Assembly (NCBI RefSeq): GCF_027307225.1
Contig: NZ_DAHUXJ010000068.1
Coordinates: 1,700 to 65,699 of the forward strand
DNA: 64,000 nucleotides
Origin: Bradyrhizobium sp.
GTDB lineage: Bacteria > Pseudomonadota > Alphaproteobacteria > Rhizobiales > Xanthobacteraceae
Reading direction: 5' to 3'
Part shown: piece after piece, positions 3,724 to 46,809 of the stretch
Numbering within the stretch: the first letter of the stretch is position 1
Layout: each line of letters opens with the position of its first letter
Made by a program: the position numbers and the translations under genes
Notes under the pieces: model-generated
What the model was told of the DNA's origin: nothing
The model's database searches: none
The model's input: the letters and a program-made list of their open reading frames with translations, nothing else

Positions 3724-4776
3724 ATGGAAACGGCAACGTTGCAGTTGCTCGCGGAATTGGATGCGACGGAGGGATGGCCCGCCGAGCGCTGGGCTGCCGT
3801 CCTGGATCGCACCGCGAAGCTGTTCCTGTGCAGCATTGAAAAGTTGTCGGCGTCCCAGATTGAGCTCTTCGACAGCGTCCTTGGCCGATTGATCGACCAC
3901 GTCGATACGCAATCGTTGACCAAATTGAGCCAAAAACTCTCGGAGGCGAACTGCTCCTTGCCTCAGGTTACCCGCCGGCTTGCCTTCGACGGGAACGAGT
4001 CCGTCTGGGCGCCTGTTCTGAAGTCCGGAGGCGTCGCTCAAGGCGTTCTCCTCGAGGTCATCGCGTCGTCCGGCCTCGCCCACCACCTCGCGATTGCTTC
4101 CAGACATTCGATCGATCATTCGCTGAGCGATACATTGATACAACGCGGGCCGTCGGCCGTTCACCAGGCGTTGGCCGAAAACCGCGGGGCCCAAATGTCG
4201 GAAGCCGGCTGGGTCCGTCTCGCCGAGTTCGCACAGAACGACCCCAAGCTCGCGGAAAAACTCGCGCGCCGGAGGGACATGCCGGATTCGATCAAGCGAG
4301 AGATTCAAACCAGGCTCGAAGATGCGCAGATGCGGCTGCAGTCCTCGAGGCCACGCGCCATGCGCGACCAGATTGAAGACACCGTTGCGTCCAGGGCAAC
4401 GTCCGGCATGCCCGATCCCGACCCGTCGGATCTGGCACGCGCTCAGGCCAGGATGGCGGAGGTCGCCCGCAAGGGCAAGCTGCGCGATTCCACCGTGAAT
4501 CGCGCAGCGGCCGGCCGTGACTACCTCGATGTTGCCGCAGCGCTCGCCGTGCTGACGGGATCGCCGGCCAACGTCATCTGGGCCCTGATCGCCAGCGAGA
4601 AGATCGAAGGTCTCGTCCTGTCTTGCAAGGCGGGCAGATTGAGCTGGGGCACGACGAAGATGGTTGTCAGGAATCGCCCGGGCTTGCCGCCGGTCCCGGC
4701 AGAGGAACTCGCAAAAGCGCAGGAAACCTTCCAGTCGTTTTCCCTGTCTGCCGCGCAGCGCACCGTCCGGTTCTAG
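3724..4776 (+). CDS. DUF2336-family protein
   Basis: Helical pattern LFDSVLGRLI...LAFDGNESVWAPVLKS...HHLAIASR...VHQALAEN.GA typical of alphaproteobacterial DUF2336. ATG at 3724 chosen as start. Confidence 0.8.
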   Translation: METATLQLLAELDATEGWPAERWAAVLDRTAKLFLCSIEKLSASQIELFDSVLGRLIDHVDTQSLTKLSQKLSEANCSLPQVTRRLAFDGNESVWAPVLKSGGVAQGVLLEVIASSGLAHHLAIASRHSIDHSLSDTLIQRGPSAVHQALAENRGAQMSEAGWVRLAEFAQNDPKLAEKLARRRDMPDSIKREIQTRLEDAQMRLQSSRPRAMRDQIEDTVASRATSGMPDPDPSDLARAQARMAEVARKGKLRDSTVNRAAAGRDYLDVAAALAVLTGSPANVIWALIASEKIEGLVLSCKAGRLSWGTTKMVVRNRPGLPPVPAEELAKAQETFQSFSLSAAQRTVRF

Positions 4777-4939
4777 TGCGGTGAATTTGAAGTTCCTATC
4801 AGTTTCGCGGTAACCTCGTCATAGGAACTTCAAATTCTAAACCGCACTAGAATCATATAATTGGCTAGTGCTCCTTTGATTCCGAAGTTCGTAAACGTGG
4901 AGCCGCAATGTGATACGAACTTCGGAATCGGAGCACTAG
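4773..4939. repeat. CTAG-bounded hairpin doublet, copy 1
   Basis: CTAGTGCGGT-GAATTTGAAGTTCCTAT...ATAGGAACTTCAAATTC-TAA-ACCGCACTAG, then an AT-rich linker, then CTAGTGCTCC-TTT-GATTCCGAAGTTCGTA...TACGAACTTCGGAATC-GGAGCACTAG. Confidence 0.9.
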
Positions 4940-4970
4940 TACCGCCTATTTACTCATGGTGATGGCCGCC

Positions 4971-5702
4971 TCACGGCCATGAGGCGGCCTTTGGCAAGCG
5001 CCGCCGCTCGCTTTCGTCGGCTTGTTCATCCGCCAGAACACCGTCCTCGATCCTGACGATGCGATCGGCGAACGAAACGATGCGGGGATCGTGGGTGACG
5101 ACGAGCACCGCCCGGTCGCGCTTGTGAGCTGCGTCCACAAGAATGCGCATGATGGCGCGACCGCTGTCGCCGTCGAGCGCCGAAGTCGGCTCGTCGGCGA
5201 GAATGACAGAAGGATTGGCGACAAAGGCGCGGGCGATCGCAACCCGTTGCTGTTCGCCGCCGCTTAAAGAGTCGGGCAGCGACTTCGCCTTTTGGTCGAG
5301 CCCGACAAGCGCGAGCGCATCGCGCGATTTTCGCGCGGCGTCCCGGCCGTGATGGCCGCGAATATCGAGCGCGAGCTGGACATTTTGCCGGGCCGTCATG
5401 GTCGGGAACAGATGATAGGACTGGAATACGAAGCCGATATGGTCGCGGCGGATTCGGGCGAGAGCTTCCTTGTCGGCATCCGAAGTCGCGGTGCCGCAAA
5501 CGGTCACCCTGCCCGCGCTCGGCGTCAACATGCAGCCGAGGATCAGAAGCAGCGTGGTCTTGCCGCTGCCGGACGGCCCCATCAGGAGCGTCAGCTCGCC
5601 CTTGCGCAGAGCGAGGTCGACGCCACGCAACGCCTGCACCTCCCCGGCGCCTTTGCCGAGCGTCTTCCTGATTTCCCTGGCATCGATAATGATGTCGTTC
5701 AT
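4971..5702 (-). CDS. ABC transporter ATP-binding protein (DevA/LolD/MacB-like)
   Basis: Walker A GPSGSGKTT, signature LSGGEQQRVAIARA, Walker B VILADEPT, H-loop VTHD. Its start overlaps the permease stop (ATGA). Confidence 0.95.
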   Translation of the reverse strand: MNDIIIDAREIRKTLGKGAGEVQALRGVDLALRKGELTLLMGPSGSGKTTLLLILGCMLTPSAGRVTVCGTATSDADKEALARIRRDHIGFVFQSYHLFPTMTARQNVQLALDIRGHHGRDAARKSRDALALVGLDQKAKSLPDSLSGGEQQRVAIARAFVANPSVILADEPTSALDGDSGRAIMRILVDAAHKRDRAVLVVTHDPRIVSFADRIVRIEDGVLADEQADESERRRLPKAASWP

Positions 5703-6835
5703 CGCATGAAAACCGAGGCAGGATCGATACGAACGACGCGGATGATGGCCACGAAGCCCGAGGCCACGCACATGACGACCGTGAGAACGAACAGCGCGGC
5801 CATCAGCCACGGCGTGATCACGATCGGAAGCGCGCTTCTTTCGGTCATCCTGACCACCACGTAACCGATCGCACCGGCCATGATGAAGCCGACCACCGCG
5901 TTAAACAGTGCCTGATAGATAATGACGCCGTAGATGTAGTTGTTCGACGAGCCCATTGCGCGGAGCGTGGCAAATTCGCTCAGGTGATCCTTGGTCGAGG
6001 AATAGAGCGTCTGCGCCACGATCACGGTGCCGACGATCACCCCGAGAATGGCGCCGGCAAACAGCGCCGCGCCGGCGCCAGTGCCGAACAGCCAGAAGGA
6101 TCGGCTGCGCTTGCGGAATTCGGCCGTGGTGAGCACCTCGACGTCGTTACCGACACGGTCGCGGATCGCCTGCACCGCCTTGGTGCGATCGGCGTCGGGC
6201 TTGAGGCGAACGAGCAGATCGCTCGCCTTGCTCGGAAACATGCCGGTATAGAAGCGGGAGTCTTTCTGATCGACGAACACATAGGGCGTGGTGGTGAACG
6301 AGCGGATGCCGTCGGTCACCGCAACCACCTTGACCTTGTGACCATGGATCTCCGCGGCATCGCCGAGCTTCTTGATCCCGAGCCGGTCGAAATAGGTGCG
6401 GTCGACCGCAACAGCGCCCCATTGCGAGAGCGAGCGGACGTCGCCTTCGACCACGTTCCAGGGCTGTAGCCCTCCGGCCTTCACGTCAGAGCCGACGATG
6501 AAGACCGGCGTGACCTCGCCCGAGTCGAGCCGCCAGTCGGAGAAGCCGATCACGAGCGGCACCACGGAGGCGACACCGTCTGCGGCAGCGACCTTCTCGC
6601 GCAGCTTGACGTCGAGCTGCGACGGATCCTCAAAGCACTTCGCGCCTTTGGGCAGCACCCAGAGATCGGCATTGGCGTGATCGATCATGGTCGAGACCAT
6701 GTGACCGAAGCCGAGGAAAAGGCCCATCTGGATCATCACCAGCACCACCGAGAACACGATCCCGATCAGCGTCGCGACCAAGCGCAGCCGGTCGTGAAGG
6801 AGGTTGCGCGTGGCAAGCGTCATGACCAGAGACAT
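5699..6835 (-). CDS. ABC transporter permease (DevC/FtsX-like)
   Basis: N-terminal TM, large periplasmic domain, three C-terminal TMs; LYSSTKDHLSEFATLRAMG is DevC-type. Confidence 0.9.
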   Translation of the reverse strand: MSLVMTLATRNLLHDRLRLVATLIGIVFSVVLVMIQMGLFLGFGHMVSTMIDHANADLWVLPKGAKCFEDPSQLDVKLREKVAAADGVASVVPLVIGFSDWRLDSGEVTPVFIVGSDVKAGGLQPWNVVEGDVRSLSQWGAVAVDRTYFDRLGIKKLGDAAEIHGHKVKVVAVTDGIRSFTTTPYVFVDQKDSRFYTGMFPSKASDLLVRLKPDADRTKAVQAIRDRVGNDVEVLTTAEFRKRSRSFWLFGTGAGAALFAGAILGVIVGTVIVAQTLYSSTKDHLSEFATLRAMGSSNNYIYGVIIYQALFNAVVGFIMAGAIGYVVVRMTERSALPIVITPWLMAALFVLTVVMCVASGFVAIIRVVRIDPASVFMR

Positions 6836-6849
6836 CTAACCTCATTCCC

Positions 6850-8097
6850 TCATCGTGTCTGGTCAACGACCACGCCGTCGCGCGGAATGGCCGAATGCCG
6901 CAGTGCAGGACCCTTGAATGCAGCCTTCAAGCGCGGCCCGACGATCGCGCTGGCGCCGGCGCTTGTCAGCCAGCTTAGCATCAGCGCGGCCGAGAAGACG
7001 ATGATCATCTTGAACACGGCGTTCAATGGCGCGCCGACCAGCGCATATCCCAGCCACAGCACGAAGACATAATGCACTAGATAGATGCCGTAGGCGTTCG
7101 CCGACAGGCTATCGAGCAGGTGGTCGCGCGCGCGCAACAGCCGCAGCGCGATTCCGAGATAGGCCATCACGCCGGCCGCGCTGGCAAAGGGAAAGGCAGC
7201 CGCCGCCGCCAGCCGCTCAACCAGCGGACTCGCGTTCCAGTCCGGCAAGGTCAGCGATGTCAAACCGCCCCAGGCGCACATGCAGATCGTGGCACCCGCA
7301 AGCCAGGCGAGCCAGTACCTGGCGATGGGCCCGTCGTTGCGCAACAGGCTGCGTTCGCAGCCATAGGCGCCGATGGCAAAGCCGGCAAAGAAATAAACGA
7401 GATAGTGCAAGGGACGACTATATTGGAACGAGATCGGCCCGACATTGCTCCAGGCCCAGGGCGTGAAGATCATCGCCAGCGGAATATAGGCGAGCGCCGA
7501 GAATCCGGTCAGGCACGCGACGAAGACGAGCGGTCTCTTGCCTAGCCGACCGGCCCAACGGCTCAAGGCCTCACCCCAGCGAGGCGCGAAGCCATACAGC
7601 GCGGAGGCGAGCGCGCTGAGCACGAACAGCTGCCATAGAAACCATTGCGGGCCGGAGGGCCACATCGGAAGCTTGCGCCAGTGCTGCCAGAACGCCGATA
7701 GCGACGGGTCGACTGCCGTGAGGCGATACGAGGCATAGTAGGCAAGCGGGCTGAGGATCGCGACCGCCAGCACAAAGGGAAGGCCGATCCGCCACCACCG
7801 ATCGGCGAGATAGCGAAACGCACCCTTGCGTCCAAGACTTGCCGGCGCAAACAGGCCGGCGAGGAAAAACATCAGGGGCATCAGGCTGATGTCCTGCCAG
7901 GCGCAAAAAAGGTCAAAGCCGAACCAGCGCTGCTGATCGATGATCGGGAACGCCACCCAGCGATAGGGTTCGGCATCAAAAGCAAAGGGGTGCGGGGGTT
8001 GCGATGCAAGATAAGGCAGCGCCGAATGAAAGGCGACCACGATCAGGATGACCACTGCGCGCAGATTGCTGAACGGCACATTTACATTCGAGTTCAT
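6850..8097 (-). CDS. Acyltransferase family 3 membrane protein (OpgC/MdoC-like)
   Basis: NLRAVVILIVVAFH, MPLMFFLAGLF, PQWFLWQLF, YGIYLVHYVF motifs; about 10 TM helices. Confidence 0.9.
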   Translation of the reverse strand: MNSNVNVPFSNLRAVVILIVVAFHSALPYLASQPPHPFAFDAEPYRWVAFPIIDQQRWFGFDLFCAWQDISLMPLMFFLAGLFAPASLGRKGAFRYLADRWWRIGLPFVLAVAILSPLAYYASYRLTAVDPSLSAFWQHWRKLPMWPSGPQWFLWQLFVLSALASALYGFAPRWGEALSRWAGRLGKRPLVFVACLTGFSALAYIPLAMIFTPWAWSNVGPISFQYSRPLHYLVYFFAGFAIGAYGCERSLLRNDGPIARYWLAWLAGATICMCAWGGLTSLTLPDWNASPLVERLAAAAAFPFASAAGVMAYLGIALRLLRARDHLLDSLSANAYGIYLVHYVFVLWLGYALVGAPLNAVFKMIIVFSAALMLSWLTSAGASAIVGPRLKAAFKGPALRHSAIPRDGVVVDQTR

Positions 8098-8245
8098 GTC
8101 GCGCCACGGGAAATAATTTCAGGTGCTGAAAATCCAACCGCGAGGCCACACTGTTGGTTCCAAGGGCGACTTTCCCGCGACGGCATATCGACAAGCTCGA
8201 GACCGAGCGATGACGGGCCTGGGGCGCGGTGAGCACAGCGCTGAT

Positions 8246-8293
8246 GTCCCGGACGCGGGTGCAGCGTGCAACGCCGCTCCGCACAGCCGGGAC
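8246..8293. repeat. Half copy of the GTCCCGGACGC...CCGGGAC palindromic repeat family
   Basis: Same termini as the longer copy at 27035-27158. Confidence 0.6.
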
Positions 8294-8461
8294 CTAGTGG
8301 AGTGGATTTGACATTCGCTACCCACCTAGCCGCAAACTCGGAAAGCGAATGTCAAATCCTAAACTCCACTAGAAACATATCCTTGCTAGTGGTCCTATGA
8401 TTCTAACATTCGCAAAGGTGCCCGCTGAGAAGGGATGCGAATGTTAGAATCGGACCACTAG
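8294..8461. repeat. CTAG-bounded hairpin doublet, copy 2 (divergent sequence)
   Basis: CTAGTGGAGT-GGATTTGACATTCGCT...AGCGAATGTCAAATCC-TAA-ACTCCACTAG, linker, CTAGTGGTCC-TAT-GATTCTAACATTCGCA...TGCGAATGTTAGAATC-GGACCACTAG. Confidence 0.9.
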
Positions 8462-8551
8462 TGTCGTGGATTATGGGCCCCGGATCCGCAAACCACCGCT
8501 CCGCCTTCGCTACGCGCTGCGTAGCATCCGGGGAAAGGGGTCCGCGCGCCC

Positions 8552-9811
8552 CTATTCGTCTTCCGAGTCGTCTTCGTCGTCGACCTTGCCGCGGTGCCTG
8601 CGCGAAGACGCGGTCTTGCCGAGCGATCCCGTCACCGCCGGTTCGCGCGAGGCATAGGGGTTGCGTCGCATGACGCGTGCGGCGACTTCCTCGCCGGAGA
8701 CCGCCGCCGGCTCGCAGATCAGTCGCCTCGAGGCACGGCGCATCAGGTCCACGTGGATGTGGTCGTAATGATAGGCGTTGGAGCCTGGCGCGAGCACGGT
8801 GGTGAATTGCTGGCACGCGCCGGCCTCGACGTCGCGCAGAAATCCCTGCTCTTCCGGCAGACCGTGCCAGCCGTCCTTCACCGTGACACGGCGGCCGTCG
8901 GCGAATGTGAAGGCGGCGATGTCGAGCGCGTTGCCGAAAGCGTGTTCGGAAATGCGCGCGTTGGGATTGCCGTTCATGCCGCGGCAGGAATAGGCGGAGA
9001 TTTGCTTGATCTCGACTACGCGGCTACCGAACCAGCGCTGCGCCGCCGGCTGCACGGTGTCGGCGAACCAGCGATCGAGCACCGAGACGATTGGACATGC
9101 GAGCGTTGCTGCGGGCTTGACCGCAACGGGACCGGCGACAACGGGCTCCATCGCTCCCGGACCCAACCGCGGCGGCGGCTGATACGAAGGATAAGCCGGG
9201 GCGGATGACATCGGCGCCTCGCCACGCTCCGGCAAGGTCGGCGCATAACGGTCGCGCGAGTAGGACGGCGGCGGCGGCGCATACGGCGAAGAAGGCCCGG
9301 CCTGCCAGCCCGGCGGCACGCCTTCGCTCGGCAGGCGGATGCCATCCTGATCCGGCGCCACGCTGGGCGCGCGCAGCGAGACCGGACCCGACGGCGCTCC
9401 GTATTCGCCCGCGCCGTAGCCCGCTCCGCCGGAGTTGGGCGCAGGATATGGCTGCTGCCGATAATAAGACGATGGGGGCGGCGGTTGAGGCGGCTGGCCG
9501 ACCGGCCAGCGCGGCTGGTTGCCGATGGAAGCCGGTGGACGAAGATCGTCATCAGCAAAGCCGAACGTCGAGGTGCTTTCGCCGATCGCGGAAACTTTCA
9601 ACGGAAAATCGGCACCGCAGGCACCGGGCCCTGAAATCGGGCTAATCCGAACGATATCAGGACCTTCCTTGACTGCGCCGGATTTCAGGCAGGCGGCCTC
9701 GGCCTCGGCCCGCCACGGCTCGCGTTCCTCGGAAAAAAATCCGCGGCCGCAGCCTGCCAACGATACAAGGACGAAGGAGCCGACGAGAAACCAACAAACT
9801 CCGCGCGTCAT
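8552..9811 (-). CDS. Extensin-like C-terminal domain lipoprotein
   Basis: Lipobox SLAGC, Pro-rich linker, SAYSCRGMNG...ISEHAFGNALDI...HYDHIHVD. Confidence 0.9.
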   Translation of the reverse strand: MTRGVCWFLVGSFVLVSLAGCGRGFFSEEREPWRAEAEAACLKSGAVKEGPDIVRISPISGPGACGADFPLKVSAIGESTSTFGFADDDLRPPASIGNQPRWPVGQPPQPPPPSSYYRQQPYPAPNSGGAGYGAGEYGAPSGPVSLRAPSVAPDQDGIRLPSEGVPPGWQAGPSSPYAPPPPSYSRDRYAPTLPERGEAPMSSAPAYPSYQPPPRLGPGAMEPVVAGPVAVKPAATLACPIVSVLDRWFADTVQPAAQRWFGSRVVEIKQISAYSCRGMNGNPNARISEHAFGNALDIAAFTFADGRRVTVKDGWHGLPEEQGFLRDVEAGACQQFTTVLAPGSNAYHYDHIHVDLMRRASRRLICEPAAVSGEEVAARVMRRNPYASREPAVTGSLGKTASSRRHRGKVDDEDDSEDE

Positions 9812-10032
9812 GCGCGAGAACTTCAACCAATTTATTTAAGGACTCATCAACGTCTTGATTTCACGACTCTTTAACCACGCCGCGGCCGATGCTGCGCCGC
9901 GGGGGTGCGGTGCATGGACAGCAGCGCTGACTTTTTCGTCAATGAGTGAGTCGCTAGCTTTTGACGTTAGCGCTGGTTGAGCTTGAGTGACTTCGACGCG
10001 ACCTTTGGAGCAACCCACCCTTGGAGCATCAA

Positions 10033-10125
10033 ATGGCCCTTCGTCCCTTCGTCAGTCAGCTGAGCGTGGTGACGGCGTACCTCGCATTTGCCTTTGTCGG
10101 CGCGATCGTGTTGGGCGTGTTCTGA
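10033..10125 (+). CDS. 30-aa single-pass membrane peptide (not in ORF track)
   Basis: GGAG RBS 7 nt upstream; MALRPFVSQLSVVTAYLAFAFVGAIVLGVF; followed directly by an intrinsic terminator. Confidence 0.65.
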   Translation: MALRPFVSQLSVVTAYLAFAFVGAIVLGVF

Positions 10126-10148
10126 CCTCATCCGGTCATTCGGTTTCG

Positions 10149-12640: not shown

Positions 12641-12807
12641 CTAGTGTGGCGATTCAAAAGTCCGCATCATTGATGCCGCGAGTTCGTCATGCGGACTTTG
12701 GAATCAAAGCCACACTAGGTAATTTAAGTTGGCTAGTGTCCTATCGATTCCGAAGTTCGTAAGCAAGGAGCCGCAACGTGGTACGAACTTCGGAATCGGG
12801 ACATTAG
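12641..12807. repeat. CTAG-bounded hairpin doublet, copy 3
   Basis: CTAGTGTGGC-GATTCAAAAGTCCGCAT...ATGCGGACTTTGGAATC-AAA-GCCACACTAG, linker, second module ending in a degenerate TTAG. Confidence 0.9.
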
Positions 12808-17278: not shown

Positions 17279-17446
17279 TCAGTGCCCACTTTCCGAAGTT
17301 CGTGTTCCGCCTCAGCACCCATCTTTCACGAACTTCGGAAAGCCATGGGCACTGCCAAATTTTCGATTCTAGTGTCGCTTTCCATTTGAAGTCCCCGAAC
17401 TGGACTCGCCGCTTGCGGAGCGGGGACTTCAAATGGGCGGCACTAG
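17279..17446. repeat. CTAG-bounded hairpin doublet, copy 4
   Basis: AGTGCCCA-CTTTCCGAAGTTCGTG...CACGAACTTCGGAAAG-CCA-TGGGCACT, linker, CTAGTGTCGC-TTT-CCATTTGAAGTCCCCG...CGGGGACTTCAAATGG-GCGGCACTAG. Confidence 0.9.
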
Positions 17447-23075: not shown

Positions 23076-24469
23076 AACTGGCCGACTTCCTGAACTTGCG
23101 GACCATCGGCGGTCAGATCACCGCGCTGGTGATCGCATCGATCCTCGCGATCCACGCGATCCTGACTTGCCTCTTCCTGCTCAACCGGCCGGACCAGCCG
23201 AATCCGACCATCGACCGCGGCCATGCCCAGTTTGCCGCCGCCGTCATGCTGCTCGGCGCTTCAGCTCCCGCCGAACGCCAGCGGCTGGCCGCTGATCTCG
23301 CCCGCGCCTTTCCCAAGCTCGATGTCCAGCTGCTGCCGCCGGGCCCGATTCCCGAAGCGAGCGCCGTCGAGGGCCTCGACCTGCGCAGCCTGCACCGGCG
23401 GCTCGACAGCACTTATCGCATCTTCGCGGTCGCCGATGGTCAAAGCCGCCAAAGGGTCGGCGTTGCACTTCCGGATGGCGCCATGATTTCGGCGCGAGTC
23501 CTGCCCGACCGGCTGCGGCCGTACTGGATCGGCTCGTGGATGGTGACGCTGCTGTTTGTGATCGTCAGCGTCAGCCTTCTCAGCCTGTGGGCCGCGCGCG
23601 CACTGACGGCGCCGCTATCGGCCTTTGCCAAGGCGGCCGAGAACTTCAGCGTCAACGGCGCCGCCGCTCCCCTGCCCGAGCGCGGACCGGAAGAAATCCG
23701 CTTCGTCGCCAAGGCGCTCAACCGGATGGGAGAGCGCATCAGTACCCTGATCGACGACCGCACCAAGATGCTGGCTGCGATCAGCCACGATCTGCGCACG
23801 CCGATCACGCGGATGCGGCTCAGGGCAGAGTTCATCGACGACGAGATGCATCGTCACCGCATGATGAGCGATCTCGACCAGATGCGCGCGATGCTGGAAT
23901 CGGTGCTGTCGTTCCTGCGCAACGACCGCAAGCTCGAAGCCATGACGCTTGCCGACATCGCCTCCACCTTGCAGCTCGTCGCCGACCAGTTCGCCGACTT
24001 CGGCCACAAGGTCACCTATCAGGGCCCGGAACATGCGATGGCAACGGTGCGGCCGGACGACCTCACCCGCAGCGTCACCAATCTCGTCGAAAATTCCGTC
24101 CGGCACGGCGCGCTCGTCACCATCCGCCTTTCGATCTCGGCCGACGCCGCGACCATCGAGGTCGAGGACGACGGGCCCGGCATTTCGGACGCGCGCAAGG
24201 AAGTGATGCTGGAGCCGTTCGTGCGCGGCGACGATGCGCGCAACATGGACGAGACCACGGGCTTCGGGCTTGGGCTATCGATCGCCCGCGCCATCGTGCT
24301 GGCGCATGGCGGCAAGCTCTCGCTGCACGACCGCCAGCCGAACGGGCTGATCGTGCGCATCGAACTGCCAATACGGCAGCGTTCCGGTTCTGACATTCGT
24401 GCCCCTGTTGAGGCGAGCACTTCCACGAATGTCAGAACCAAAGGAACGCTGCAAAATAAAATTATCTAG
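23072..24469 (+). CDS. Sensor histidine kinase (HAMP-HisKA-HATPase); last ~30 codons derived from a repeat
   Basis: H-box AISHDLRTP, N-box NLVENS, VEDDGPG, GFGLGLSIAR. Start overlaps the regulator stop. Confidence 0.95.
   Translation: MKLADFLNLRTIGGQITALVIASILAIHAILTCLFLLNRPDQPNPTIDRGHAQFAAAVMLLGASAPAERQRLAADLARAFPKLDVQLLPPGPIPEASAVEGLDLRSLHRRLDSTYRIFAVADGQSRQRVGVALPDGAMISARVLPDRLRPYWIGSWMVTLLFVIVSVSLLSLWAARALTAPLSAFAKAAENFSVNGAAAPLPERGPEEIRFVAKALNRMGERISTLIDDRTKMLAAISHDLRTPITRMRLRAEFIDDEMHRHRMMSDLDQMRAMLESVLSFLRNDRKLEAMTLADIASTLQLVADQFADFGHKVTYQGPEHAMATVRPDDLTRSVTNLVENSVRHGALVTIRLSISADAATIEVEDDGPGISDARKEVMLEPFVRGDDARNMDETTGFGLGLSIARAIVLAHGGKLSLHDRQPNGLIVRIELPIRQRSGSDIRAPVEASTSTNVRTKGTLQNKII
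24376..24469. repeat. CTAG-family hairpin module inside the kinase 3' end, copy 5
   Basis: GCAGCGTTCC-GGTTCTGACATTCGTG...CACGAATGTCAGAACC-AAA-GGAACGCTGC, then an AT linker ending in CTAG that supplies the stop codon. Confidence 0.85.
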
Positions 24470-24498
24470 TGCCGTTCTAGCAGCAGAGTAAAGTCGCG

Positions 24499-27158: not shown

Positions 27159-27252
27159 GTGGCAGGTTCCAAAAGCCGTGCATCACGTCCTCCGATTGGA
27201 GCAAACCGGCCGAGGCCGCGTTGACACGCCGCATCAGGGGATTAAATTAGAG

Positions 27253-27406
27253 CTGTTCCGAGGGGAGCTCCGACGAGGAGCTGAGAGACCGCACCCTCTG
27301 GTTCCAGAATGATCCAAAGGACGCTGTCCGAAGGATCATGTCGTTGGGATCAAGAGACCGCGGTGACCCTTTGAACCTGATCCGGGTCATGCCGGCGAAG
27401 GGACAG
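27253..27406 (+). ncRNA. TPP riboswitch with long P3 extension
   Basis: GGGG...GCTGAGA and CCCTTTGAACCTGATCCGGGTCATGCCGGCGAAGGGA directly upstream of thiO. Confidence 0.95.
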
Positions 27407-27408
27407 GG

Positions 27409-28425
27409 ATGTATCAGAGTTCGACTAGTCCGAGGGGACAATCCCCGATTTCTATCATCGGTGCAGGCGTCGCAGGCGCCTGGCATGCTTTGCTGCTTGC
27501 GCAGTCCGGCCGCGCGGTCACGCTGCACGAGCGCAGTGACGCCACGATGACGCAGTCCACCAGTTACTGGGCCGGCGGCATGCTCGCCCCCTGGTGCGAG
27601 GCGGAATCGACCGAGCCCGTGATCGTCCGGCTCGGCCTTCGCTCCCTCACGCTCTGGCGGGATTATTTTCCCGATACCCCGTTCAACGGCTCGCTGGTGG
27701 TGGCGCACGCGCGCGACCGGGCTGACTTCGAGCGCTTTGCGCGGCTGACATCGGGATATCGGCGGCTGGACGCGCAAGGCGTCAGCGAGATCGAACCTTC
27801 GCTCGACGGGCGCTTTCGCGAAGGCCTGTTCTATCCGGACGAGGGCCATGTCGAGCCGCGCAAGATCCTGGGCGAACTGCACGCGCGCATTCGCGCGCTC
27901 GGCGGCAGCATCGAATTCAACAGCGCGGTCGAGCCGGACCAACTCGACGGCACCGTGATCGATTGCCGCGGGCTTGCGGCGCGCCAGGCGCAGGGCGAGC
28001 TTCGCGGCGTCAAGGGCGAACTCATCCTGATCGAGAGCGACGAGGTGGAACTGTCGCGTCCGGTGCGGCTGGTCCATCCGCGATTTCCCCTCTACATCAT
28101 CCCGCGCGGCGGCGGCCGTTTCATGCTGGGCGCGACTTCGCTCGAGACCGAAAGTGCCGGCGTCAGTGTCCGCTCCGCGCTCGAGCTTCTCGGCGCGGCC
28201 TATGCCGTCCATCCCGCCTTCGCCGAAGCGCGCATCCTCGAATTCGGCTCGGGCCTTCGCCCGGCCTTTCCGGACAACCTGCCGCGCATTGCGATCAAGA
28301 ACGGGAAGATCGCGGTGAACGGGCTTTATCGCCACGGCTTTCTTTTGGCGCCGGCGCTCGCCGAACTGACGCTCGGTTATGTCGAGCGCGGCACCATCGA
28401 CAACGAGGTAATGCAATGCGCGTGA
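27409..28425 (+). CDS. thiO: Glycine oxidase ThiO
   Basis: IIGAGVAG FAD motif, AGGMLAPWCE, GLRPAFPDNLP, NGLYRHGFLLAP; operon context. Confidence 0.93.
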   Translation: MYQSSTSPRGQSPISIIGAGVAGAWHALLLAQSGRAVTLHERSDATMTQSTSYWAGGMLAPWCEAESTEPVIVRLGLRSLTLWRDYFPDTPFNGSLVVAHARDRADFERFARLTSGYRRLDAQGVSEIEPSLDGRFREGLFYPDEGHVEPRKILGELHARIRALGGSIEFNSAVEPDQLDGTVIDCRGLAARQAQGELRGVKGELILIESDEVELSRPVRLVHPRFPLYIIPRGGGRFMLGATSLETESAGVSVRSALELLGAAYAVHPAFAEARILEFGSGLRPAFPDNLPRIAIKNGKIAVNGLYRHGFLLAPALAELTLGYVERGTIDNEVMQCA

Positions 28426-39952: not shown

Positions 39953-40420
39953 ATGGCATTGATCCTCGCGAGCTTCTGTAGCGGCCTCATCTTCGGGCTG
40001 GGACTTTTGATCTCCGGCATGAACGAACCGGAAAAGGTGCTCGGCTTCCTCGATTTCTTCGGCGCTTGGGACGCCACGCTGGCCTTTGTGATGGCAGGCG
40101 CCGTCGCTGTGGCCGCAGCAGGATTTGCGCTGGCGCGACGCCGAGTTGCGCCGCTGTTTGCCGCCAGATTTGGCTGGCCCTCGCGCAACGATATCGATGC
40201 ACCGCTCCTGACCGGCTCGGCGCTGTTCGGCGTTGGCTGGGGTCTTGCCGGGATTTGTCCCGGCCCTGCGCTGGTGAACCTCGCTAGTCTGACCGCACCG
40301 ATCATCGTCTTCGTGGCGGCGATGGTGCTCGGCATGTTCGGCTTTGAACTGTGGCAGCGGCGCAGTGTGGCGAGCGCTGGCGCTCAAAGTGTCGCCGTCG
40401 CAACGCCGTCGGACGGGTGA
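39953..40420 (+). CDS. YeeE/YedE (DUF6691-like) transporter, subunit 2
   Basis: GLLISGMNEPEKVLGFLD, WDATLAFVM, FGVGWGLAGICPGPA. Confidence 0.92.
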   Translation: MALILASFCSGLIFGLGLLISGMNEPEKVLGFLDFFGAWDATLAFVMAGAVAVAAAGFALARRRVAPLFAARFGWPSRNDIDAPLLTGSALFGVGWGLAGICPGPALVNLASLTAPIIVFVAAMVLGMFGFELWQRRSVASAGAQSVAVATPSDG

Positions 40421-40463
40421 GGCGGCGCTCGCCCCTCACGTCGGCATTGCGAGCGAAGCGCCT

Positions 40464-40886
40464 TTACGCCTTCTCTTCCGCTTCCAGGCGGTTGAATTCG
40501 GCCTTGACCAGTTCGTGAAAGACATCCTTGTCCAGCACGCCGGATTTGCGGATGGGCGCGGCCGCAAGCGCATTGACGACGGCGTCATGAATTTCGAGGC
40601 CGCCTTCCGAGTGCTTGACCATGCCCCACTTGATCAGCTTCTTGTCGCTGACGAGTTCCGTGAAACGCATAAGCCGCAGGCTCAAGCTCAAAAATTCCTT
40701 CGGATCCGGAAATTCGCGTTTCACCGCCTGCATGCCGCGCAGGCTCGCCGGCTCCTCAGGCTTTACTGATCCATCCGCCTCGCCGTCCGGTAAGTCCGCA
40801 ATCAGCGCGGACTGAAAAATGCCGAGCGCCTGATGCAGCCGCCCTGGCTGCACAGCCTCTACCTTCTCTTCAGTCGCAGCACTCAT
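40464..40886 (-). CDS. Hypothetical protein
   Basis: 140-aa ORF with a GGAG-type RBS and typical codon usage. Confidence 0.7.
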   Translation of the reverse strand: MSAATEEKVEAVQPGRLHQALGIFQSALIADLPDGEADGSVKPEEPASLRGMQAVKREFPDPKEFLSLSLRLMRFTELVSDKKLIKWGMVKHSEGGLEIHDAVVNALAAAPIRKSGVLDKDVFHELVKAEFNRLEAEEKA

Positions 40887-41152
40887 CTCTTCCTCCCGGG
40901 CGGCAACGCGTAGCTCACCCTTGCGCCAGCGGATGCCGCTTTTGCGCCAACAGAAGGGGCATTGCAACCTCGACGAAGTCGTTTTGAAACCATTTTGGAG
41001 CCGCCAGTTCCACAACTCGCGGCACTCATGAGCATTCGGGTCGATCCGATCGCGCCTTTAGGCGCTGCTCGTCAGAACTGCCGCCCCTTCTACAGCGACA
41101 CAACCCGCTACCGCTCGTGGCGTGGATTTGACACTCGCCGTCCGCCAAGCCG

Positions 41153-41644
41153 CTAACGACGCGGCGGCAATCGCCGCTCCCTGAGCAGGGCATCATGCGC
41201 TGCCGAAATCCGCAAGAAGGCTTCCTCGCTGCCGCCGGCATCCGGATGAGCGCGCTTGGCGAACAGCTTGTAGGCGCGATGAATTTCAGCTTCGGACAGG
41301 CGACGATCGAGCGGCAATCCCAGAAGCTCGCGGGAGTGCTCTTCCATGGTCAGCATCCTGGGCGCTGCCTGTCGCCTGCCGAATTGCGGCGTGGTGAGCG
41401 CAGATAACACCTCGCGAATGACGCCGAGCCGGCGCCGTGCCGCAACACTGGTTGCGCGATCGGCGCCGTCCTGCGCGGCGGATCGCAGGATCGGCAAGGC
41501 CTGGGAAGCCGCCTGACCCAACGCCTCGTCTTCGCTTGTAGAGGCAATCAGCTGCGCGAGCCGCATCGCCTCGCCGTAGTCGGGCGCATGCGCCAACCAG
41601 ATGCGATCGAGTTCAAGCTTCCACTCCGCAAGATGCCGGTCCAT
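41153..41644 (-). CDS. Protein with C-terminal J-like domain
   Basis: ELLGLP...EIHRAYKLFAKRAHPDAGGSEEAFLRISAAHDAL, containing the HPD motif. Confidence 0.85.
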   Translation of the reverse strand: MDRHLAEWKLELDRIWLAHAPDYGEAMRLAQLIASTSEDEALGQAASQALPILRSAAQDGADRATSVAARRRLGVIREVLSALTTPQFGRRQAAPRMLTMEEHSRELLGLPLDRRLSEAEIHRAYKLFAKRAHPDAGGSEEAFLRISAAHDALLRERRLPPRR

Positions 41645-41788
41645 GGCAAACACCCAGAGAATGAAACACCAGGCGGAGGTAAGGCTTTCCGCTTCCGTTG
41701 CGGCAAATTTGAATTGATTTGTCGAGAAAGCGCTGTGGCCAGCGCGGCAGAGTTGTTAAGCTCCCAAAAAATCGACGCGGAGAAAAAA

Positions 41789-42559
41789 ATGTCAGGACTT
41801 CTCGAAGAGCACATCGCTGTCGTCACGGGCGCAGCCTCCGGCATCGGTCACGCGATCGCGTCCGGCTATGCCCGCGAAGGCGCTCGGGTGGTCCTGCTCG
41901 ACATCAACCAACCGGCGGCCGAACAGGCCGCGGAAGAAATTCGCCGCTCCGGCGGCCGTGCTTCCAGCTACCGGCTCGACGTCACCCACCGCGAGGACTG
42001 CGTGAAGGTCGCGAAGCTCATCGCGGAACAGGTCGGGCAGGTTTCGATCCTGGTCAACAATGCCGGCATCAACCGCCGTAACGGCTTCGCCGGCGAGGCT
42101 TCGGCCGTGATCAAGGATTGGGAAGACATCATCTCGATCAATCTCAACGGCGTATTCAATGTGACGCATGCCCTTCTCGAACCCTTGCGCGCGAGCAAGG
42201 GACGCATCGTCAACATTGCCTCGATCCAGTCCTTCGTGCATGTGCGCACGCCGAACTCGCCGGCCTACACCACCTCCAAGCACGGCGTGCTCGGCTTCAC
42301 CCGGGCGCTTGCGGCCGAACTCGGCAAGTTTGGCGTGCGCGTCAATGCGATCGGCCCCGGCTTGATCGAAACGCCGCTCAATGCCGCGGTGCGCGCCAAC
42401 AATCCGGAGTTGGTCAAGATTTTCATCGACCACACGCCGCTCGGGCGCGCGGGCAAACCGGAAGACATCGTGGGGCCGGCGATCTTTCTCGCCTCCGACC
42501 TCGCAGCCTATGTCACGGGATCGATCGTGATGGCGGATGGCGGCTACCGGGCGATCTGA
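41789..42559 (+). CDS. Short-chain dehydrogenase/reductase
   Basis: VTGAASGIG, NNAGI, YTTSK, VNAIGPG. Confidence 0.95.
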   Translation: MSGLLEEHIAVVTGAASGIGHAIASGYAREGARVVLLDINQPAAEQAAEEIRRSGGRASSYRLDVTHREDCVKVAKLIAEQVGQVSILVNNAGINRRNGFAGEASAVIKDWEDIISINLNGVFNVTHALLEPLRASKGRIVNIASIQSFVHVRTPNSPAYTTSKHGVLGFTRALAAELGKFGVRVNAIGPGLIETPLNAAVRANNPELVKIFIDHTPLGRAGKPEDIVGPAIFLASDLAAYVTGSIVMADGGYRAI

Positions 42560-42610
42560 ACGCGGATGCACGGACAAATAAGCGTAAAAAGAAGGGCAGG
42601 AAGTAAGAGG

Positions 42611-42934
42611 TCACGGGTGCGGCGCCTCCGTTCGCACCTTGCCAAAGTGCCGCGCCAGATAGAGCGCGATGACCAGGCCGCCGATCAGCGCCACCGCGCA
42701 TAGCGGCCACGGCGGCGGCAACTGCGGCAGGAAAATATAGAGCAGTGCGAAACCGATCGCGAGATTGCAAAAGCCCCAGACCACGTTGACCACCGCCGAG
42801 GATTCGCCGACGCCGCGCGGCGAAGCGAACGGCGTCTGAAAACGGTTGCCACACGTGCCTTGCACGACGTGCGGGATCGCGTTCGTCAGGAACGCGCCGG
42901 CAAAGAACCAGCCGACATAGACATACCAGACCAT
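42611..42934 (-). CDS. Small membrane protein
   Basis: Three hydrophobic helices; NAIPHVVQG...FQTPFA.P.G. Confidence 0.75.
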   Translation of the reverse strand: MVWYVYVGWFFAGAFLTNAIPHVVQGTCGNRFQTPFASPRGVGESSAVVNVVWGFCNLAIGFALLYIFLPQLPPPWPLCAVALIGGLVIALYLARHFGKVRTEAPHP

Positions 42935-42960
42935 GAACGATCCTCTTTCGCAGCGCGTGA

Positions 42961-43227
42961 CTACCCGAAGCGAAGGCGCGAACGCTCCTTCGCCTTCTCG
43001 GCTTCGACCTCGCGGTCGCGCGCCGGCGCATGGGTATGCAGCGAGGCAAGCAGCCGATGCGCGGCAGATGTGACCTCCTCGACCGCGCGGTCGAAGGCAG
43101 CCTCGTTGGCTTGCGACGGCTTGTTGAAGCCGGATAACTTGCGCACGAACTGCAAGGCCGAAGCGTGAATTTCGTCGTCGGTCGCCGGCGGCTCAAAGTT
43201 GAACAGCGTCTTGATGTTTCGGCACAT
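42961..43227 (-). CDS. DUF2277-family protein
   Basis: MCRNIKTLFNFEPPATDDEIHASALQFVRKLSG. Confidence 0.88.
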   Translation of the reverse strand: MCRNIKTLFNFEPPATDDEIHASALQFVRKLSGFNKPSQANEAAFDRAVEEVTSAAHRLLASLHTHAPARDREVEAEKAKERSRLRFG

Positions 43228-43361
43228 ATTGATCTCCCTGAAAACGGCCCGGCGTAGGCCGCTCCTTAGACAAGGTCTGGCGGACGGCCAATTCTGCCAT
43301 AGAATAGATCGTGCATTCTCTTTCCGCAAAGCCGGTCGAGCCGGCGAGAGGCAAGTTCCCG

Positions 43362-43607
43362 ATGAGCCATGTCACTTACAAGATCGTCGAACACGATAGC
43401 GGTTGGGCCTATACCTACGATGGGGTGTTCTCCGAAAGCTTCCCGACCCACGCCAAGGCCCTGGCGGCCGCCCGACGCGCCGCCCTCGAGCAACGCGTGC
43501 CAGGACGGACAGAATCCATCCAATATGAGACCGCTGACGGCAAATGGCACACCGAAGCCGCCTCCGGCAGTGACCGCCCCGAGACCGATGTTCAGGACAC
43601 ACCGTAA
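43362..43607 (+). CDS. DUF2188-family protein
   Basis: YKIVEHDSGWAY..DGVFSESFPTHA.AL.AA...IQYETADGKW. Confidence 0.8.
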   Translation: MSHVTYKIVEHDSGWAYTYDGVFSESFPTHAKALAAARRAALEQRVPGRTESIQYETADGKWHTEAASGSDRPETDVQDTP

Positions 43608-43636
43608 CGCGCAAGCCATCAAATGAGGATAACGCC

Positions 43637-44677
43637 ATGAGAGGTTTGCGGCCGCTATTGTCCGCGATTTTCGTCGCCATGTCATTTGCCGCTGTCGCCG
43701 CGGACTATCCGCCGCCGAAGCAAAGCGACTTCATCGTGCACGACTTCAAGTTCCATGGCGGGGAGGTGATGGCAGAGCTGAAGCTGCATTACACCACGGT
43801 GGGCGAGCCGACCGGCCAGCCGGTATTGGTGCTGCACGGCACCGGCGGCTCGGCGGCGAGCATGTTGACGCCCGCCTTTGCCGGAGAGCTGTTCGGCGCG
43901 GGCCAGCCGCTCGACGCCTCGAAATATTACATCATCATTCCCGACGGCATCGGCCATGGCAAATCGTCCAGGCCCTCCGACGGCATGAAGACCGGATTTC
44001 CCAAATACGACTACGATGACATGGTCGAGGCGCAACACCGGCTCGTGACGGAAGGCCTTGGCATCAAGCACCTGCGGCTCGTGATCGGCAATTCCATGGG
44101 CGGCATGCAGACCTGGCTGTGGGCCGAAAAATATCCCGACATGATGGACGTAGCGGTGCCGATGGCCTCGCAACCGACCGCGATGGCGGCGCGCAACTGG
44201 ATCTTGCGCCGGATGATGATCGAGACCATCCGCAACGATCCCGACTACAAAAACGGCAACTACACGAGCCAGCCGCGCATGATGAAATATGCCATCGCAG
44301 CCTATCGCTTCGCGAGCTCCGGCGGCACGCTCGCCTATCAGGACCAGGCGCCGACGGCGGAGAAGGCCGATCGCATGGTCGCCGAGCAGCTGGCGAAGCC
44401 GATCGCCACCGACGCCAACGACTTCATCTATCAGTGGGGGTCCTCGCACGACTACGATGCATCCGCCGGGCTTTCGCGGATCGAGGCGAAGCTGCTCGCG
44501 ATCAACGCGGTCGATGACGAGCGCAACCCGCCCGAAACCGGCGTCATCATCGATGCACTGGCCCAGGTCAAGCATGGCAAGCTCGATCTGATCCCGGCGT
44601 CAACCGAGACACGCGGCCACGGCACGACGGCGAACGCAAAGTTCTACAAGCTGGCGCTTGAGGAGCTGCTGCGCTAG
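43637..44677 (+). CDS. Exported alpha/beta hydrolase (homoserine acetyltransferase-like)
   Basis: Signal peptide, LVLHGTGG, GNSMGGM nucleophile elbow, RGHG. Confidence 0.9.
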   Translation: MRGLRPLLSAIFVAMSFAAVAADYPPPKQSDFIVHDFKFHGGEVMAELKLHYTTVGEPTGQPVLVLHGTGGSAASMLTPAFAGELFGAGQPLDASKYYIIIPDGIGHGKSSRPSDGMKTGFPKYDYDDMVEAQHRLVTEGLGIKHLRLVIGNSMGGMQTWLWAEKYPDMMDVAVPMASQPTAMAARNWILRRMMIETIRNDPDYKNGNYTSQPRMMKYAIAAYRFASSGGTLAYQDQAPTAEKADRMVAEQLAKPIATDANDFIYQWGSSHDYDASAGLSRIEAKLLAINAVDDERNPPETGVIIDALAQVKHGKLDLIPASTETRGHGTTANAKFYKLALEELLR

Positions 44678-44840
44678 TGCGGCGAATTTGAAGTTCCTAT
44701 CAGTTTCGCCGAGAGTTCGTTATAGGAACTTCAAATTCAAAGCCGCTACTCAAATCAATAACTTGCTAGAGCTCCTTTGATTCCGAAGTTCGCATCGGAG
44801 GGGCCGCAATAGCTTGCGAACTTCGGAATCGGAGCTCTAG
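44674..44840. repeat. CTAG-bounded hairpin doublet, copy 6
   Basis: Begins at the hydrolase stop codon (CTAG); close to copy 1 and nearly identical to copy 7. Confidence 0.92.
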
Positions 44841-44879
44841 TGAGGGCGAAAACACCAGCGCCTCGTCACCCTGCGCGCC

Positions 44880-45245
44880 GTGATGCGCTGGACGATGGCC
44901 GGGTTCTACGTCGCGGCCGGCATCGCTCATCTTGTCGTGCCGGATAAATTGCTCGCGATCACGCCGTCATGGGTGCCCTTCGCGCCGCAGGTCATCCTGG
45001 TGACCGGCTTGTGCGAACTGGCAGGCGCCGTGGCGCTGGTGACCAGGCCATTCCGACGCTGGGCAGGAGTTGCACTCGCGGCCTACGCCATTTGCGTGTG
45101 GCCCGCCAATTTCAAGCACGCCATCGAAGGCATCGACCTGCCGTATATCGCCAACAGCTGGCTCTATCACGGCCCCAGGCTCGCCTTCCAGCCGGTGCTG
45201 GTCTGGTGGGCGCTGTTCAGCGCTGAAATCATCGACTGGCCCTAG
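44880..45245 (+). CDS. DoxX-like membrane protein
   Basis: GIAHL..P, PSWVPF...ILVTGLCELAGAVAL, VWPANF, RLAFQPVL. Confidence 0.85.
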   Translation: MMRWTMAGFYVAAGIAHLVVPDKLLAITPSWVPFAPQVILVTGLCELAGAVALVTRPFRRWAGVALAAYAICVWPANFKHAIEGIDLPYIANSWLYHGPRLAFQPVLVWWALFSAEIIDWP

Positions 45246-45407
45246 AGCTCCGATTCCGAAGTTCGCAAGCTATTGCGGCTCCTCCGATGCGAACTTCGGA
45301 ATCAAAGGAGCTCTAGCAACTTATTGATTTGAGTAGCGGCTTTGAATTTGAAGTTCCTATAACGAACTCACGGCGAAACTGATAGGAACTTCAAATTCGC
45401 CGCACTT
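45242..45407. repeat. CTAG-bounded hairpin doublet, copy 7 (inverted relative to copy 6)
   Basis: Begins at the DoxX stop codon (CTAG); its reverse complement matches 44674-44840 with only a few differences. Confidence 0.92.
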
Positions 45408-45485
45408 GCGGCGCGATTCGCGGTAGCTGTGATCTGGTCCCGGTGATAATTCTGCGGCTGGCGCCCGCAATTTTGGAGAGTTGAC

Positions 45486-46091
45486 GTGAGCGAGCTTTGC
45501 CCCGATGACCTCAGGAAGATCTACCCGGATCCGACAGCGCGCGTGATCACGAAGGCGCGGCCAGCGATCGATGTTCACGCGCGGAAATTCATCGAGATGT
45601 CGCCGTTCTGCGTGCTGGCCACGTCCGGCACCGACGGCAGCGTCGACGCCTCGCCGCGCGGCGGCCATCCCGGCTTTATCCATGTCGACGGACCCAACCG
45701 GCTCTTGATGCCCGACCGCCCCGGCAACAACCGGATCGACAGTTTCAAGAACATCGTCGAGGGTAGCGGCCTCTTGCAGCTGATCTTCTTCGTGCCCGGC
45801 CTCGACGAGACGCTGCGCGTCGGCGGCAGCGGCGTGCTCACGGCCGATCCGGCTCTGCTTTCGGCGATGGAAGAATTCGGAAAATCGCCACGCGCAGTGC
45901 TGCGCATCGACGTCAATGAGGCCTATTTCCACTGCGGCAAGGCGCTGATGCGTTCAAAACTGTGGTCGAAGGATACGCAGGTCGAGCGCGCGATGTTTCC
46001 ATCGATCAGCCAGGTCATCCACGATCAGACCAGTCTCGGCGAGCCGGAAACGCAAGCCGCGGTCGAGGCGCGCTACAAGACGCAGCTTTGA
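45486..46091 (+). CDS. Pyridoxamine 5'-phosphate oxidase-family FMN-binding protein
   Basis: SPFCVLATSG.DG.VDASPRGG.PGF, PDRPGNNRIDS, EAYFHCGKA..RSKLW. Confidence 0.9.
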   Translation: MSELCPDDLRKIYPDPTARVITKARPAIDVHARKFIEMSPFCVLATSGTDGSVDASPRGGHPGFIHVDGPNRLLMPDRPGNNRIDSFKNIVEGSGLLQLIFFVPGLDETLRVGGSGVLTADPALLSAMEEFGKSPRAVLRIDVNEAYFHCGKALMRSKLWSKDTQVERAMFPSISQVIHDQTSLGEPETQAAVEARYKTQL

Positions 46092-46113
46092 TTCCGGATT
46101 TCGTGATAGGTGG

Positions 46114-46222
46114 CCTCATGGTTCGAGGCGCCACGCAAAAGCGTGACTCCTCACCATGGGGGTCTCGCGCCCAAATTGAGGACCTCATCCCGAGGAGGCG
46201 CTTGCGCCGTCTCGAGGGATGA
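46114..46222. repeat. CCTCATGGTTCGAG / CCTCATCCCGAGGAG palindromic doublet
   Basis: Same family as 11640, 32234 and 63555. Confidence 0.8.
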
Positions 46223-46232
46223 TTGAAGAGCG

Positions 46233-46721
46233 CTAGTGCTCCTCGCCCTGGAGGCCGCCGACATGCTTCTGGGTGTAGAGTTCGAGCCCGATGCGGCCGA
46301 TTAGGTCGATCTGGGTTTCGAGGAAATCGATGTGATGTTCCTCGTCCTTCATCAGCTTCTCGAACAGATCGCGCGAGACGTAATCCTTCACGCCGTGACA
46401 GTGGGTTGCGGCTTCCTGATAGAGCAGGCGCGCGCTGATTTCCGCGGCGAGATCGCAGTCGATGACTTCCTTGACGTTCTGGCCGATCCGCAGGGGATCG
46501 AGCACCTGCATGTTGGGAAAGCCGTCGAGGAAGATGATGCGATCGATCAAGCGGTCGGCGTGCTCCATCTCCTCGATGGATTCCTTGCGCCAGGTCTTGG
46601 CCATCTCGAGCAGGCCCCAATTGCCCAGGAGGCGGTAGTGCAGCCAGTACTGGTTGATGGCCGTGAGTTCGTGGCGCAAACCCTTGTTAAGATAGTCGAT
46701 GACCTTGGCGTCGCCTTGCAT
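46233..46721 (-). CDS. bfr: Bacterioferritin
   Basis: [31 protein letters not shown] ferroxidase motifs. Confidence 0.97.
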
Positions 46722-46733
46722 GATAGCTTCCCT

Positions 46734-46809
46734 TTAGTGCCCACTTTCCGAAGTTCGTACCCTGCCTCAGCACCGACTTCCACGAACTTCGGAAAGTCAA
46801 GGGCACTAA
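46734..46809. repeat. Single CTAG-family hairpin module between bfd and bfr, copy 8
   Basis: TTAGTGCCC-ACTTTCCGAAGTTCGT...ACGAACTTCGGAAAGT-CAA-GGGCACTAA. Confidence 0.85.

Follow-up and report, generated by a model that had tools for sequence, protein, structure and literature searches.

Hairpin doublets of a Bradyrhizobium genome as probable miniature transposable elements descended from IS630-family insertion sequences

A stretch of 64,000 nucleotides from a Bradyrhizobium sp. (contig NZ_DAHUXJ010000068.1 of assembly GCF_027307225.1, positions 1,700 to 65,699), hereafter the window, harbours short CTAG-bounded hairpin units at eight loci, at window positions 4773, 8294, 12641, 17279, 24376, 44674, 45242 and 46734. 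An earlier note on this DNA had grouped these units into a single dispersed family whose hairpin geometry is fixed. This description holds: a profile hidden Markov model (HMM), trained on 637 strict copies of the unit from the genome, detected 14 units in the window, all at exactly these eight loci, and no further units elsewhere in the 64 kb. The data discussed below indicate that the units are joined two by two in a non-autonomous miniature transposable element with inverted repeats (MITE), which very probably descends from insertion sequences (ISs) of the IS630 family, elements with a Tc1/mariner-like transposase of the DDE type.

Direct reading of the eight loci showed that a unit is 75-79 nt long and ends CTAG(T/A)G...C(A/T)CTAG, with degenerate ends at 17279, 24376 and 46734. 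Its basal stem is 10 bp long and its upper stem 16 bp, with a bulge of about 3 nt on one side between the two, and the loop, about 20 nt long, carries a GCCGC/GCTGA-type motif. The basal stem had been described earlier as about 7 bp; the stem itself is there, and its length becomes 10 bp once the CTAG is counted. Six of the eight loci are inverted doublets with an AT-rich linker of 13-14 nt, in agreement with the earlier description, and the apparent singles at 24376 and 46734 are decayed doublets in which linker and partner remnants remain (Table 1). The partner at 24376 is reduced to the basal stem (CTAG, 7 nt, CTAG), its hairpin interior apparently having been deleted. The units of the doublet at 4773 score 47.4 and 64.1 bits with the unit profile. 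The left CTAG of this doublet supplies the TAG stop codon of the open reading frame (ORF) at 3505-4776; likewise, the stop codon of the gene upstream of 44674 and that of a DoxX-like ORF come from the left CTAGs of the doublets at 44674 and 45242, respectively. The unit at 46734 begins 12 nt upstream of a minus-strand start codon.

Table 1 Hairpin units at the eight loci of the window (window positions)
Feature	Positions	Composition and remarks
Doublet, youngest subfamily D1	4773-4939	alpha 4773-4850, linker 4851-4864, beta 4865-4939
Doublet, subfamily D2	8294-8461	alpha 8294-8372, linker, beta 8386-8461
Doublet, subfamily D5	12641-12807	alpha 12641-12718, beta 12733-12807; right flank TTAG
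Doublet, D4-like type	17279-17446	beta 17279-17355 with decayed CTAG ends, alpha 17369-17446
Decayed doublet	24376-24480	beta-type 24376-24452, ends GCAG...CTGC; AT-rich linker; collapsed partner 24466-24480
Doublet, subfamily D3	44674-44840	alpha then beta
Doublet, subfamily D3	45242-45408	beta then alpha, opposite to 44674
Beta-type unit	46734-46809	ends TTAG...CTAA; linker and partner remnants at 46810-46835

The genome-wide count that the earlier note had proposed was made with the same profile on the whole assembly (5.6 Mb, 160 contigs) and yielded 1,153 units without overlap in 563 clusters; 967 of these units are full length. The units account for roughly 1.7% of the DNA of the genome. 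CTAG is fivefold under-represented in the assembly, with 3,679 sites compared to ~19,500 expected, and 1,605 of these sites (44%) lie within the elements. The genome contains 654 strict CTAG-to-CTAG palindromes, and a degenerate pattern of the unit gave 656 forward matches against none with a reversed control. The abundance of the units, the empty control and the scarcity of CTAG together exclude chance. Many contigs end within copies of the youngest subfamily, with overlaps of 141 nt, so that the true copy number is higher than the one counted.

Clusters of two units make up 362 of the 563, and in 357 of these 362 the units are inverted, their bulges facing an AT-rich linker of 13-14 nt. A doublet measures 165-169 bp and, a single alpha-alpha case apart, always combines one alpha unit (78-79 nt, GAATTTGAAGTTCC type) with one beta unit (75-76 nt, GATTCCGAAGTTCG type), inverted and in fixed partnerships; 117 classifiable doublets have the order alpha-beta and 101 the order beta-alpha. 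Most units that appear single in the genome still have traces of a linker and a partner. Of the 856 full units, 839 possess the bulge, which is T-rich (TTT in 378). About a dozen unit subfamilies were distinguished, each internally 93-98.6% identical. Small, non-coding, present in high copy number and falling into near-identical subfamilies, the doublets have the properties by which a MITE is defined.

The doublet inserts whole at CTAG, leaving a CTAG on both sides. The earlier note had proposed to look for empty sites that hold just one CTAG, and such presence/absence polymorphism was found at 12641: in four species of the genus the short spacer between the same two divergent genes holds a single CTAG, and at the orthologous spot in this genome the 167-bp doublet stands between CTAG and TTAG. 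A clean empty site was obtained at this locus only. The nearest species (at most 81% identity) show no synteny around 4773, 8294 and 17279, and at 44674/45242 the relatives have a different gene end and lack the DoxX-like gene. In 13 clusters a whole doublet is nested at one of the inner CTAGs of a host doublet, with CTAG on either side of the insert, and in 48 cases neighbouring doublets have one CTAG in common. The empty site, the nested copies and the common CTAGs identify the doublet as the mobile unit and CTAG as its target, of which either the CTAG or the inner TA is duplicated. The four CTAGs of a doublet then serve in turn as sites where new copies or other ISs can insert, giving rise to arrays and nesting. 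Among 253 doublets, flanks depart from CTAG 20 times at the outermost base and 7 times at the adjacent base, which leans modestly towards duplication of TA at nTAn targets.

The source of the arms became apparent with a profile restricted to the arm, which picked up a single arm standing at the end of a disrupted IS630-family gene of another species. A search with that IS revealed 23 loci of a 1,214-bp element (L072-L094), present in 44 of 151 genomes of the genus. This element encodes an intact IS630-family transposase of 389 amino acids (NF033545, 268.7 bits, cut-off 100), and its ends read CTAG+TGTCCCGAGTCACAAGTTCGCA and CTAG+TGTCCTGAACCAGAAGTTCGCA. Compared with the bulge-less outer arms of beta units, the IS ends are identical at ~19 of 23 positions in the TGTCCC subfamily of this genome and at 23 of 26 in the units of a relative, and the match runs position for position from the CTAG, without the 3-nt insertion. 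The alpha arm of the same doublet family agrees with the other IS end at 19 of 27 positions. The core sequence of the arms is GAAGTTCG. Furthermore, every IS630-family IS with definable ends in the genus is flanked as cTA/G...C/TAg (slashes marking the borders of the IS). IS630-family elements duplicate TA (PMC2170065), and according to the same paper, citing Tenzen and Ohtsubo 1991, IS630 prefers a TA within CTAG.

On this basis a route of mobilisation can be proposed. The two outer arms of the 165-169 bp element would be the terminal inverted repeats from both ends of an IS630-family IS, with the AT-rich linker of 13-14 nt in the place of the transposase gene. Each outer arm would be backed by an inverted inner copy, which gives a 26-bp hairpin per end, on paper. 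A transposase of the IS630 family, acting in trans, would bind the arms, cut at the outer ends and insert the element into the TA of a CTAG, duplicating the TA. The 3-nt T-rich bulge in the inner arms may displace the binding core from its register with the terminus; the inner ends would then be bindable and not cleavable, and it would be the doublet that moves and not the single hairpin. If the two arms of a unit are both copied from a single transposase site, the stems would be expected to covary without any RNA fold.

Covariation is indeed strong. In the 14 window units 96.7% of the stem cells are paired and 19 of 26 pairs have changed in both partners, values not attained in any of 500 shuffles. 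When the structure was shifted by 1-3 columns, pairing fell to 25-43%, and 77 cells had changed on both sides compared to 6 on one side. The compensatory changes reported in the earlier note are therefore real. The conclusion drawn from them there, that pairing implies a single-stranded DNA or RNA fold read by an HUH enzyme, is not supported, given the homology of the arms to IS630 terminal repeats, a target and duplication like those of IS630-family elements, the pattern of mismatches, the lack of orientation bias and the absence of units on either side of the Y1/HUH genes (see below). Genome-wide, G:T (164) and A:C (152) mismatches are equally common, which argues for complementarity at the DNA level rather than for an RNA fold. 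The stems probably covary because each hairpin is a terminal repeat joined to an inverted copy of itself. No Rfam family was matched at gathering score, and at E values up to 10 just chance-level, miRNA-like matches appeared.

The alternative raised by such structures is that the units are hairpins like those of repetitive extragenic palindromic (REP) sequences and REPINs, or of IS200/IS605 elements, cleaved as a folded single strand beside CTAG by a Y1/HUH transposase, either a REP-associated tyrosine transposase (RAYT) or TnpA. The geometry resembles that of REP doublets, with inverted palindromes, a short spacer, a conserved asymmetric bulge and a loop motif; the structure is conserved with strong covariation, and inner arms are conserved as much as outer ones. 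Insertion after CTAG by an HUH element with CTAG as its own end would also look like a target duplication. The genome encodes both a RAYT-like protein and an IS200, and has five Y1_Tnp matches in all, a broken copy included. However, none of these genes is flanked by units, contrary to the suggestion that a RAYT/HUH gene might be bracketed by the same hairpins; the view that a separate mobiliser is needed is upheld. The RAYT-like gene lies in the window itself, as an ORF for 187 amino acids on the minus strand at 60577-61140 (Y1_Tnp, 27.5 bits), with no CTAG hairpin unit within 3 kb. The IS200 on contig C85 was considered as mobiliser and rejected: a doublet lies nearby on one side only, and the IS has GC-rich hairpins of its own. 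The units lack the GTAG or CGTC head of catalogued REPs (PMC3733652) and are twice the length of a REP; the earlier distinction from the GTAG-REPs of the local RAYT stands. Inverted units moreover would present two different structures on one strand, and the arms match IS630 terminal repeats in register. Same-strand subterminal hairpins without duplication, as in (PATE-like) IS200/IS605 elements, were not seen, the units being inverted in 357 of 362 cases and inserts being flanked by CTAG. Mobilisation by an HUH enzyme is extremely improbable. The doublets are best seen as common selfish DNA, built unusually of two hairpins, rather than as something that an unknown hairpin-reading enzyme acts on.

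The transposase might also be a DDE enzyme of another CTAG-targeting family, of the IS5 or IS701 type, that makes a 4-bp CTAG duplication. MITEs derived from IS5 elements that duplicate CTAG are known (MITEPsy1; PMC3189936), and the genome harbours several DDE_Tnp_1 genes, DDE_Tnp_4 being absent. A doublet of this genome also has an IS701-family IS in its inner CTAG, and the IS is bordered by CTAG left and right. This copy, on contig C120 (L020 1238-2682), encodes a transposase of 411 amino acids and has the ends CATTACAGTTG. It had the appearance of a transposase gene between two hairpins and was rejected as mobiliser, being an IS with its own ends beside an intact linker. The ends CATTACAGTTG... 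show no likeness to the arms (p = 0.93) in a comparison of IS5-type ends that covered this IS701-family element only. Neither CTAA...CTAA nor TTAG...TTAG direct-repeat flanks were found among the 253 doublets, and the homology of the arms is to IS630 ends. A transposase of the IS5 or IS701 type is very unlikely. The earlier suggestion of an IS5-type transposase came closer, with a DDE enzyme and a CTAG target, and named the wrong family. A second arrangement of hairpin, gene and hairpin, in the relative G159, was rejected likewise: it is an IS630-family IS with its own ends (L036 1398-2445, L037), again in the inner CTAG of a doublet beside an intact linker. Its reading frame is divided over two ORFs, split at an A8 run, and several other copies of this IS abut doublets. 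Such foreign ISs within inner CTAGs indicate that the CTAGs of the element are landing sites for other ISs.

Several observations weigh against the IS630-based explanation set out above. The IS clade with matching ends is absent from this assembly, and all seven high-copy genomes in the genus sample lack it. A tblastn search of this genome revealed only two IS630-family ISs, with proteins 28-30% identical to that clade, and local alignment of their ends with the arms gave a weak match (shuffle p = 0.02-0.6), so these two resident ISs cannot be named as mobilisers. In three high-copy genomes (G018, G104 and G160, with 180-300 units each) no IS630-type (DDE_3) gene was detected. A plain MITE requires only its outer ends, and the retained inner arms and bulge (839 of 856) are not explained by it; within families, the inner and the outer arms are equally conserved, and loops and linker are 4-8 times more variable than either. 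No IS630 mechanism is known that requires conserved inner arms or a bulge. Finally, at a CTAG target duplication of TA cannot be told from duplication of CTAG, the flank statistics favouring TA modestly. The missing resident transposase with matching ends bears on present mobility, not on descent. Across the 151 genomes, presence of the IS designated ISx3 showed no positive association with doublet number.

The resident IS630-family ISs, one with at least three copies and the other with several, are all flanked by CTAG and collapsed at contig ends. Copies are located on contigs C153 (10405-11653), C4 (1-1402), C133, C64, C105, C139 and C138, and one of them abuts a hairpin unit. In the copy on C153 the transposase is encoded in two frames, joined at an A7 run.

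Equal conservation of inner and outer arms, the near-invariant bulge and hundreds of copies in genomes without an IS630 gene have led us to consider that formation of the hairpin or cruciform is itself required. This would imply a mobilisation route new for Tc1/mariner-type elements, or a function adopted by the host; such a route could be dependent on the host or on the structure, or be timed by CcrM through the GANTC in the arms. We regard this as improbable.

It could likewise be argued that host use keeps the copies, as stabiliser of RNA 3'-ends or terminator, as protein-binding site or through CcrM methylation, with mobility secondary or extinct. The arms are 4-8 times more conserved than the loops within families, as noted, and several high-copy genomes have no IS630 gene. 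In this genome 31% of the clusters provide the TAG stop of an open frame that is 100 codons or longer. However, free CTAGs do so in 34% of cases, and this equality indicates that the position of the elements reflects where their targets lie. The doublets have no preferred orientation relative to the gene whose stop codon lies next to them (52 beta versus 46 alpha, p = 0.61), copies occur in divergent promoter regions as well (12641, 17279), and the mismatches show no wobble preference. As to methylation, GANTC, the site of CcrM, occurs twice in four beta subfamilies, at positions 11-15 from CTAG in both arms, and the units carry 6.4% of the GANTC sites of the genome, four times the background density; CIR repeats are also tied to GANTC, as PMC2229807 describes. 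Most alpha subfamilies and two beta subfamilies, however, lack the site. In two IS630 clades (L039, L040 and L072-L094) one of the IS ends likewise has GANTC at positions 11-15, and its placement in the sequence hints that transposition might be timed by methylation. Copy number ranging from zero to more than 650 within one genus also speaks against maintenance by host use, which is considered unlikely.

In the genus sample the unit counts were 656 (this genome), 298, 288, 275, 222, 184 and 71, then below 40, and about half of the genomes had none. When genomes representing species were scanned with a pattern, the element appeared in many alphaproteobacterial groups: Xanthobacteraceae (Bradyrhizobium, Afipia), Hyphomicrobium, Mesorhizobium, Hoeflea, Brucella daejeonensis, Caulobacteraceae, Asticcacaulis, magnetospirilla and Sphingobium. 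Wherever it was inspected there, the element had the same two hairpins and a length of 167 bp.

The earlier note had recognised no named family in the units, and neither a paper naming the family in Bradyrhizobium nor a named Bradyrhizobium MITE was found in the literature searched. Br-REP1 and Br-REP2 of B. japonicum (PMC5082802) were considered and differ in sequence, and the catalogue of GTAG/CGTC REPs does not mention CTAG (PMC3733652). The closest described repeats are CIR and Bru-RS, compared here by their published description. In the account of PMC2229807, CIR1-4 (Chen and Shapiro 2003) are intergenic repeats associated with CcrM that occur in Caulobacter, Brucella and further Alphaproteobacteria; like the doublet they consist of two inverted-repeat arms and a linker, with TA termini and GANTC, and the doublet family shares with them a host range that includes Caulobacteraceae and a Brucella species. 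By the same description, CIRs are ~110 bp with GANTC at the terminal loop, whereas the doublet is ~167 bp and has GANTC in the stems of some subfamilies. Bru-RS1 and Bru-RS2 of Brucella (Halling and Bricker 1994, via PMC2266754 and PMC10800456) are paired palindromic intergenic repeats of Hyphomicrobiales, as the doublets are. These are hot spots for IS711, with duplication of the TA of YTAR/CTAG, and CTAGs of doublets likewise hold ISs. Again by description, Bru-RS differ in being 103-106 bp long and present in tens of copies, and the accounts cited propose no IS630 origin for them.

PMC2229807 also describes elements that bear on the mode of movement. RUP (repeat unit of pneumococcus), proposed to be moved in trans by IS630-Spn1 (Oggioni and Claverys 1999), is a small non-coding intergenic repeat with TA termini and ends resembling those of an IS630-family IS, as is the doublet. 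RUP as described there is 107 bp long with one end-to-end stem, in contrast to ~167 bp, a 26-bp hairpin at each end and a CTAG target; the doublet has about five times more copies, and its matching IS is not in the same genome. Correia/NEMIS elements of Neisseria are 100-155 bp MITEs with 24-26 bp terminal repeats and TA duplication. According to the same paper they resemble the doublets in making up ~2% of the genome without a known resident cognate transposase, and differ in having a single end-to-end hairpin, no CTAG preference and an unrelated sequence. REPINs and BIMEs (PMC3116915, PMC3733652) share with the doublets the inverted palindromes, the short spacer, the doublet as replicating entity, several subfamilies and hundreds of copies. 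REPs, however, are 20-40 nt long, have a GTAG or CGTC head, make no target duplication and flank a Y1 transposase (PMC3733652), none of which is true of the units.

Some further observations concern the surroundings of the window loci. The doublet at 8294 sits between two short GC-rich repeats (8245-8294 and 8472-8535). These belong to a separate REP-like family, and each has dozens of copies of 80-95% identity in related genomes. The doublets at 44674 and 45242 are identical at 163 of 167 positions and have a private variant in common, the median identity of D3 pairs being 88%. Between these two inverted doublets (44674-45408) lies the DoxX-like ORF of 133 codons. This ORF and both doublets are absent between the same flanking genes in the five nearest species, and the gene upstream of 44674 ends ~8 codons earlier here than in those species. 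The segment may have moved as one composite unit through its outer arms, or may result from two local insertions. Elsewhere in the window a thiamine pyrophosphate (TPP) riboswitch is located at 27251-27421 (RF00059, 67.1 bits); one of its stems contains an insertion of 67 nt.

One miniature transposon thus accounts for ~1.7% of the DNA and 44% of the CTAG sites of a genome, and is a feature of many Alphaproteobacteria. It breaks short-read assemblies, supplies stop codons to genes, offers a landing pad for ISs and can bracket genes. Strong covariation in a palindromic DNA repeat, furthermore, need not signal a functional RNA or single-stranded DNA fold.

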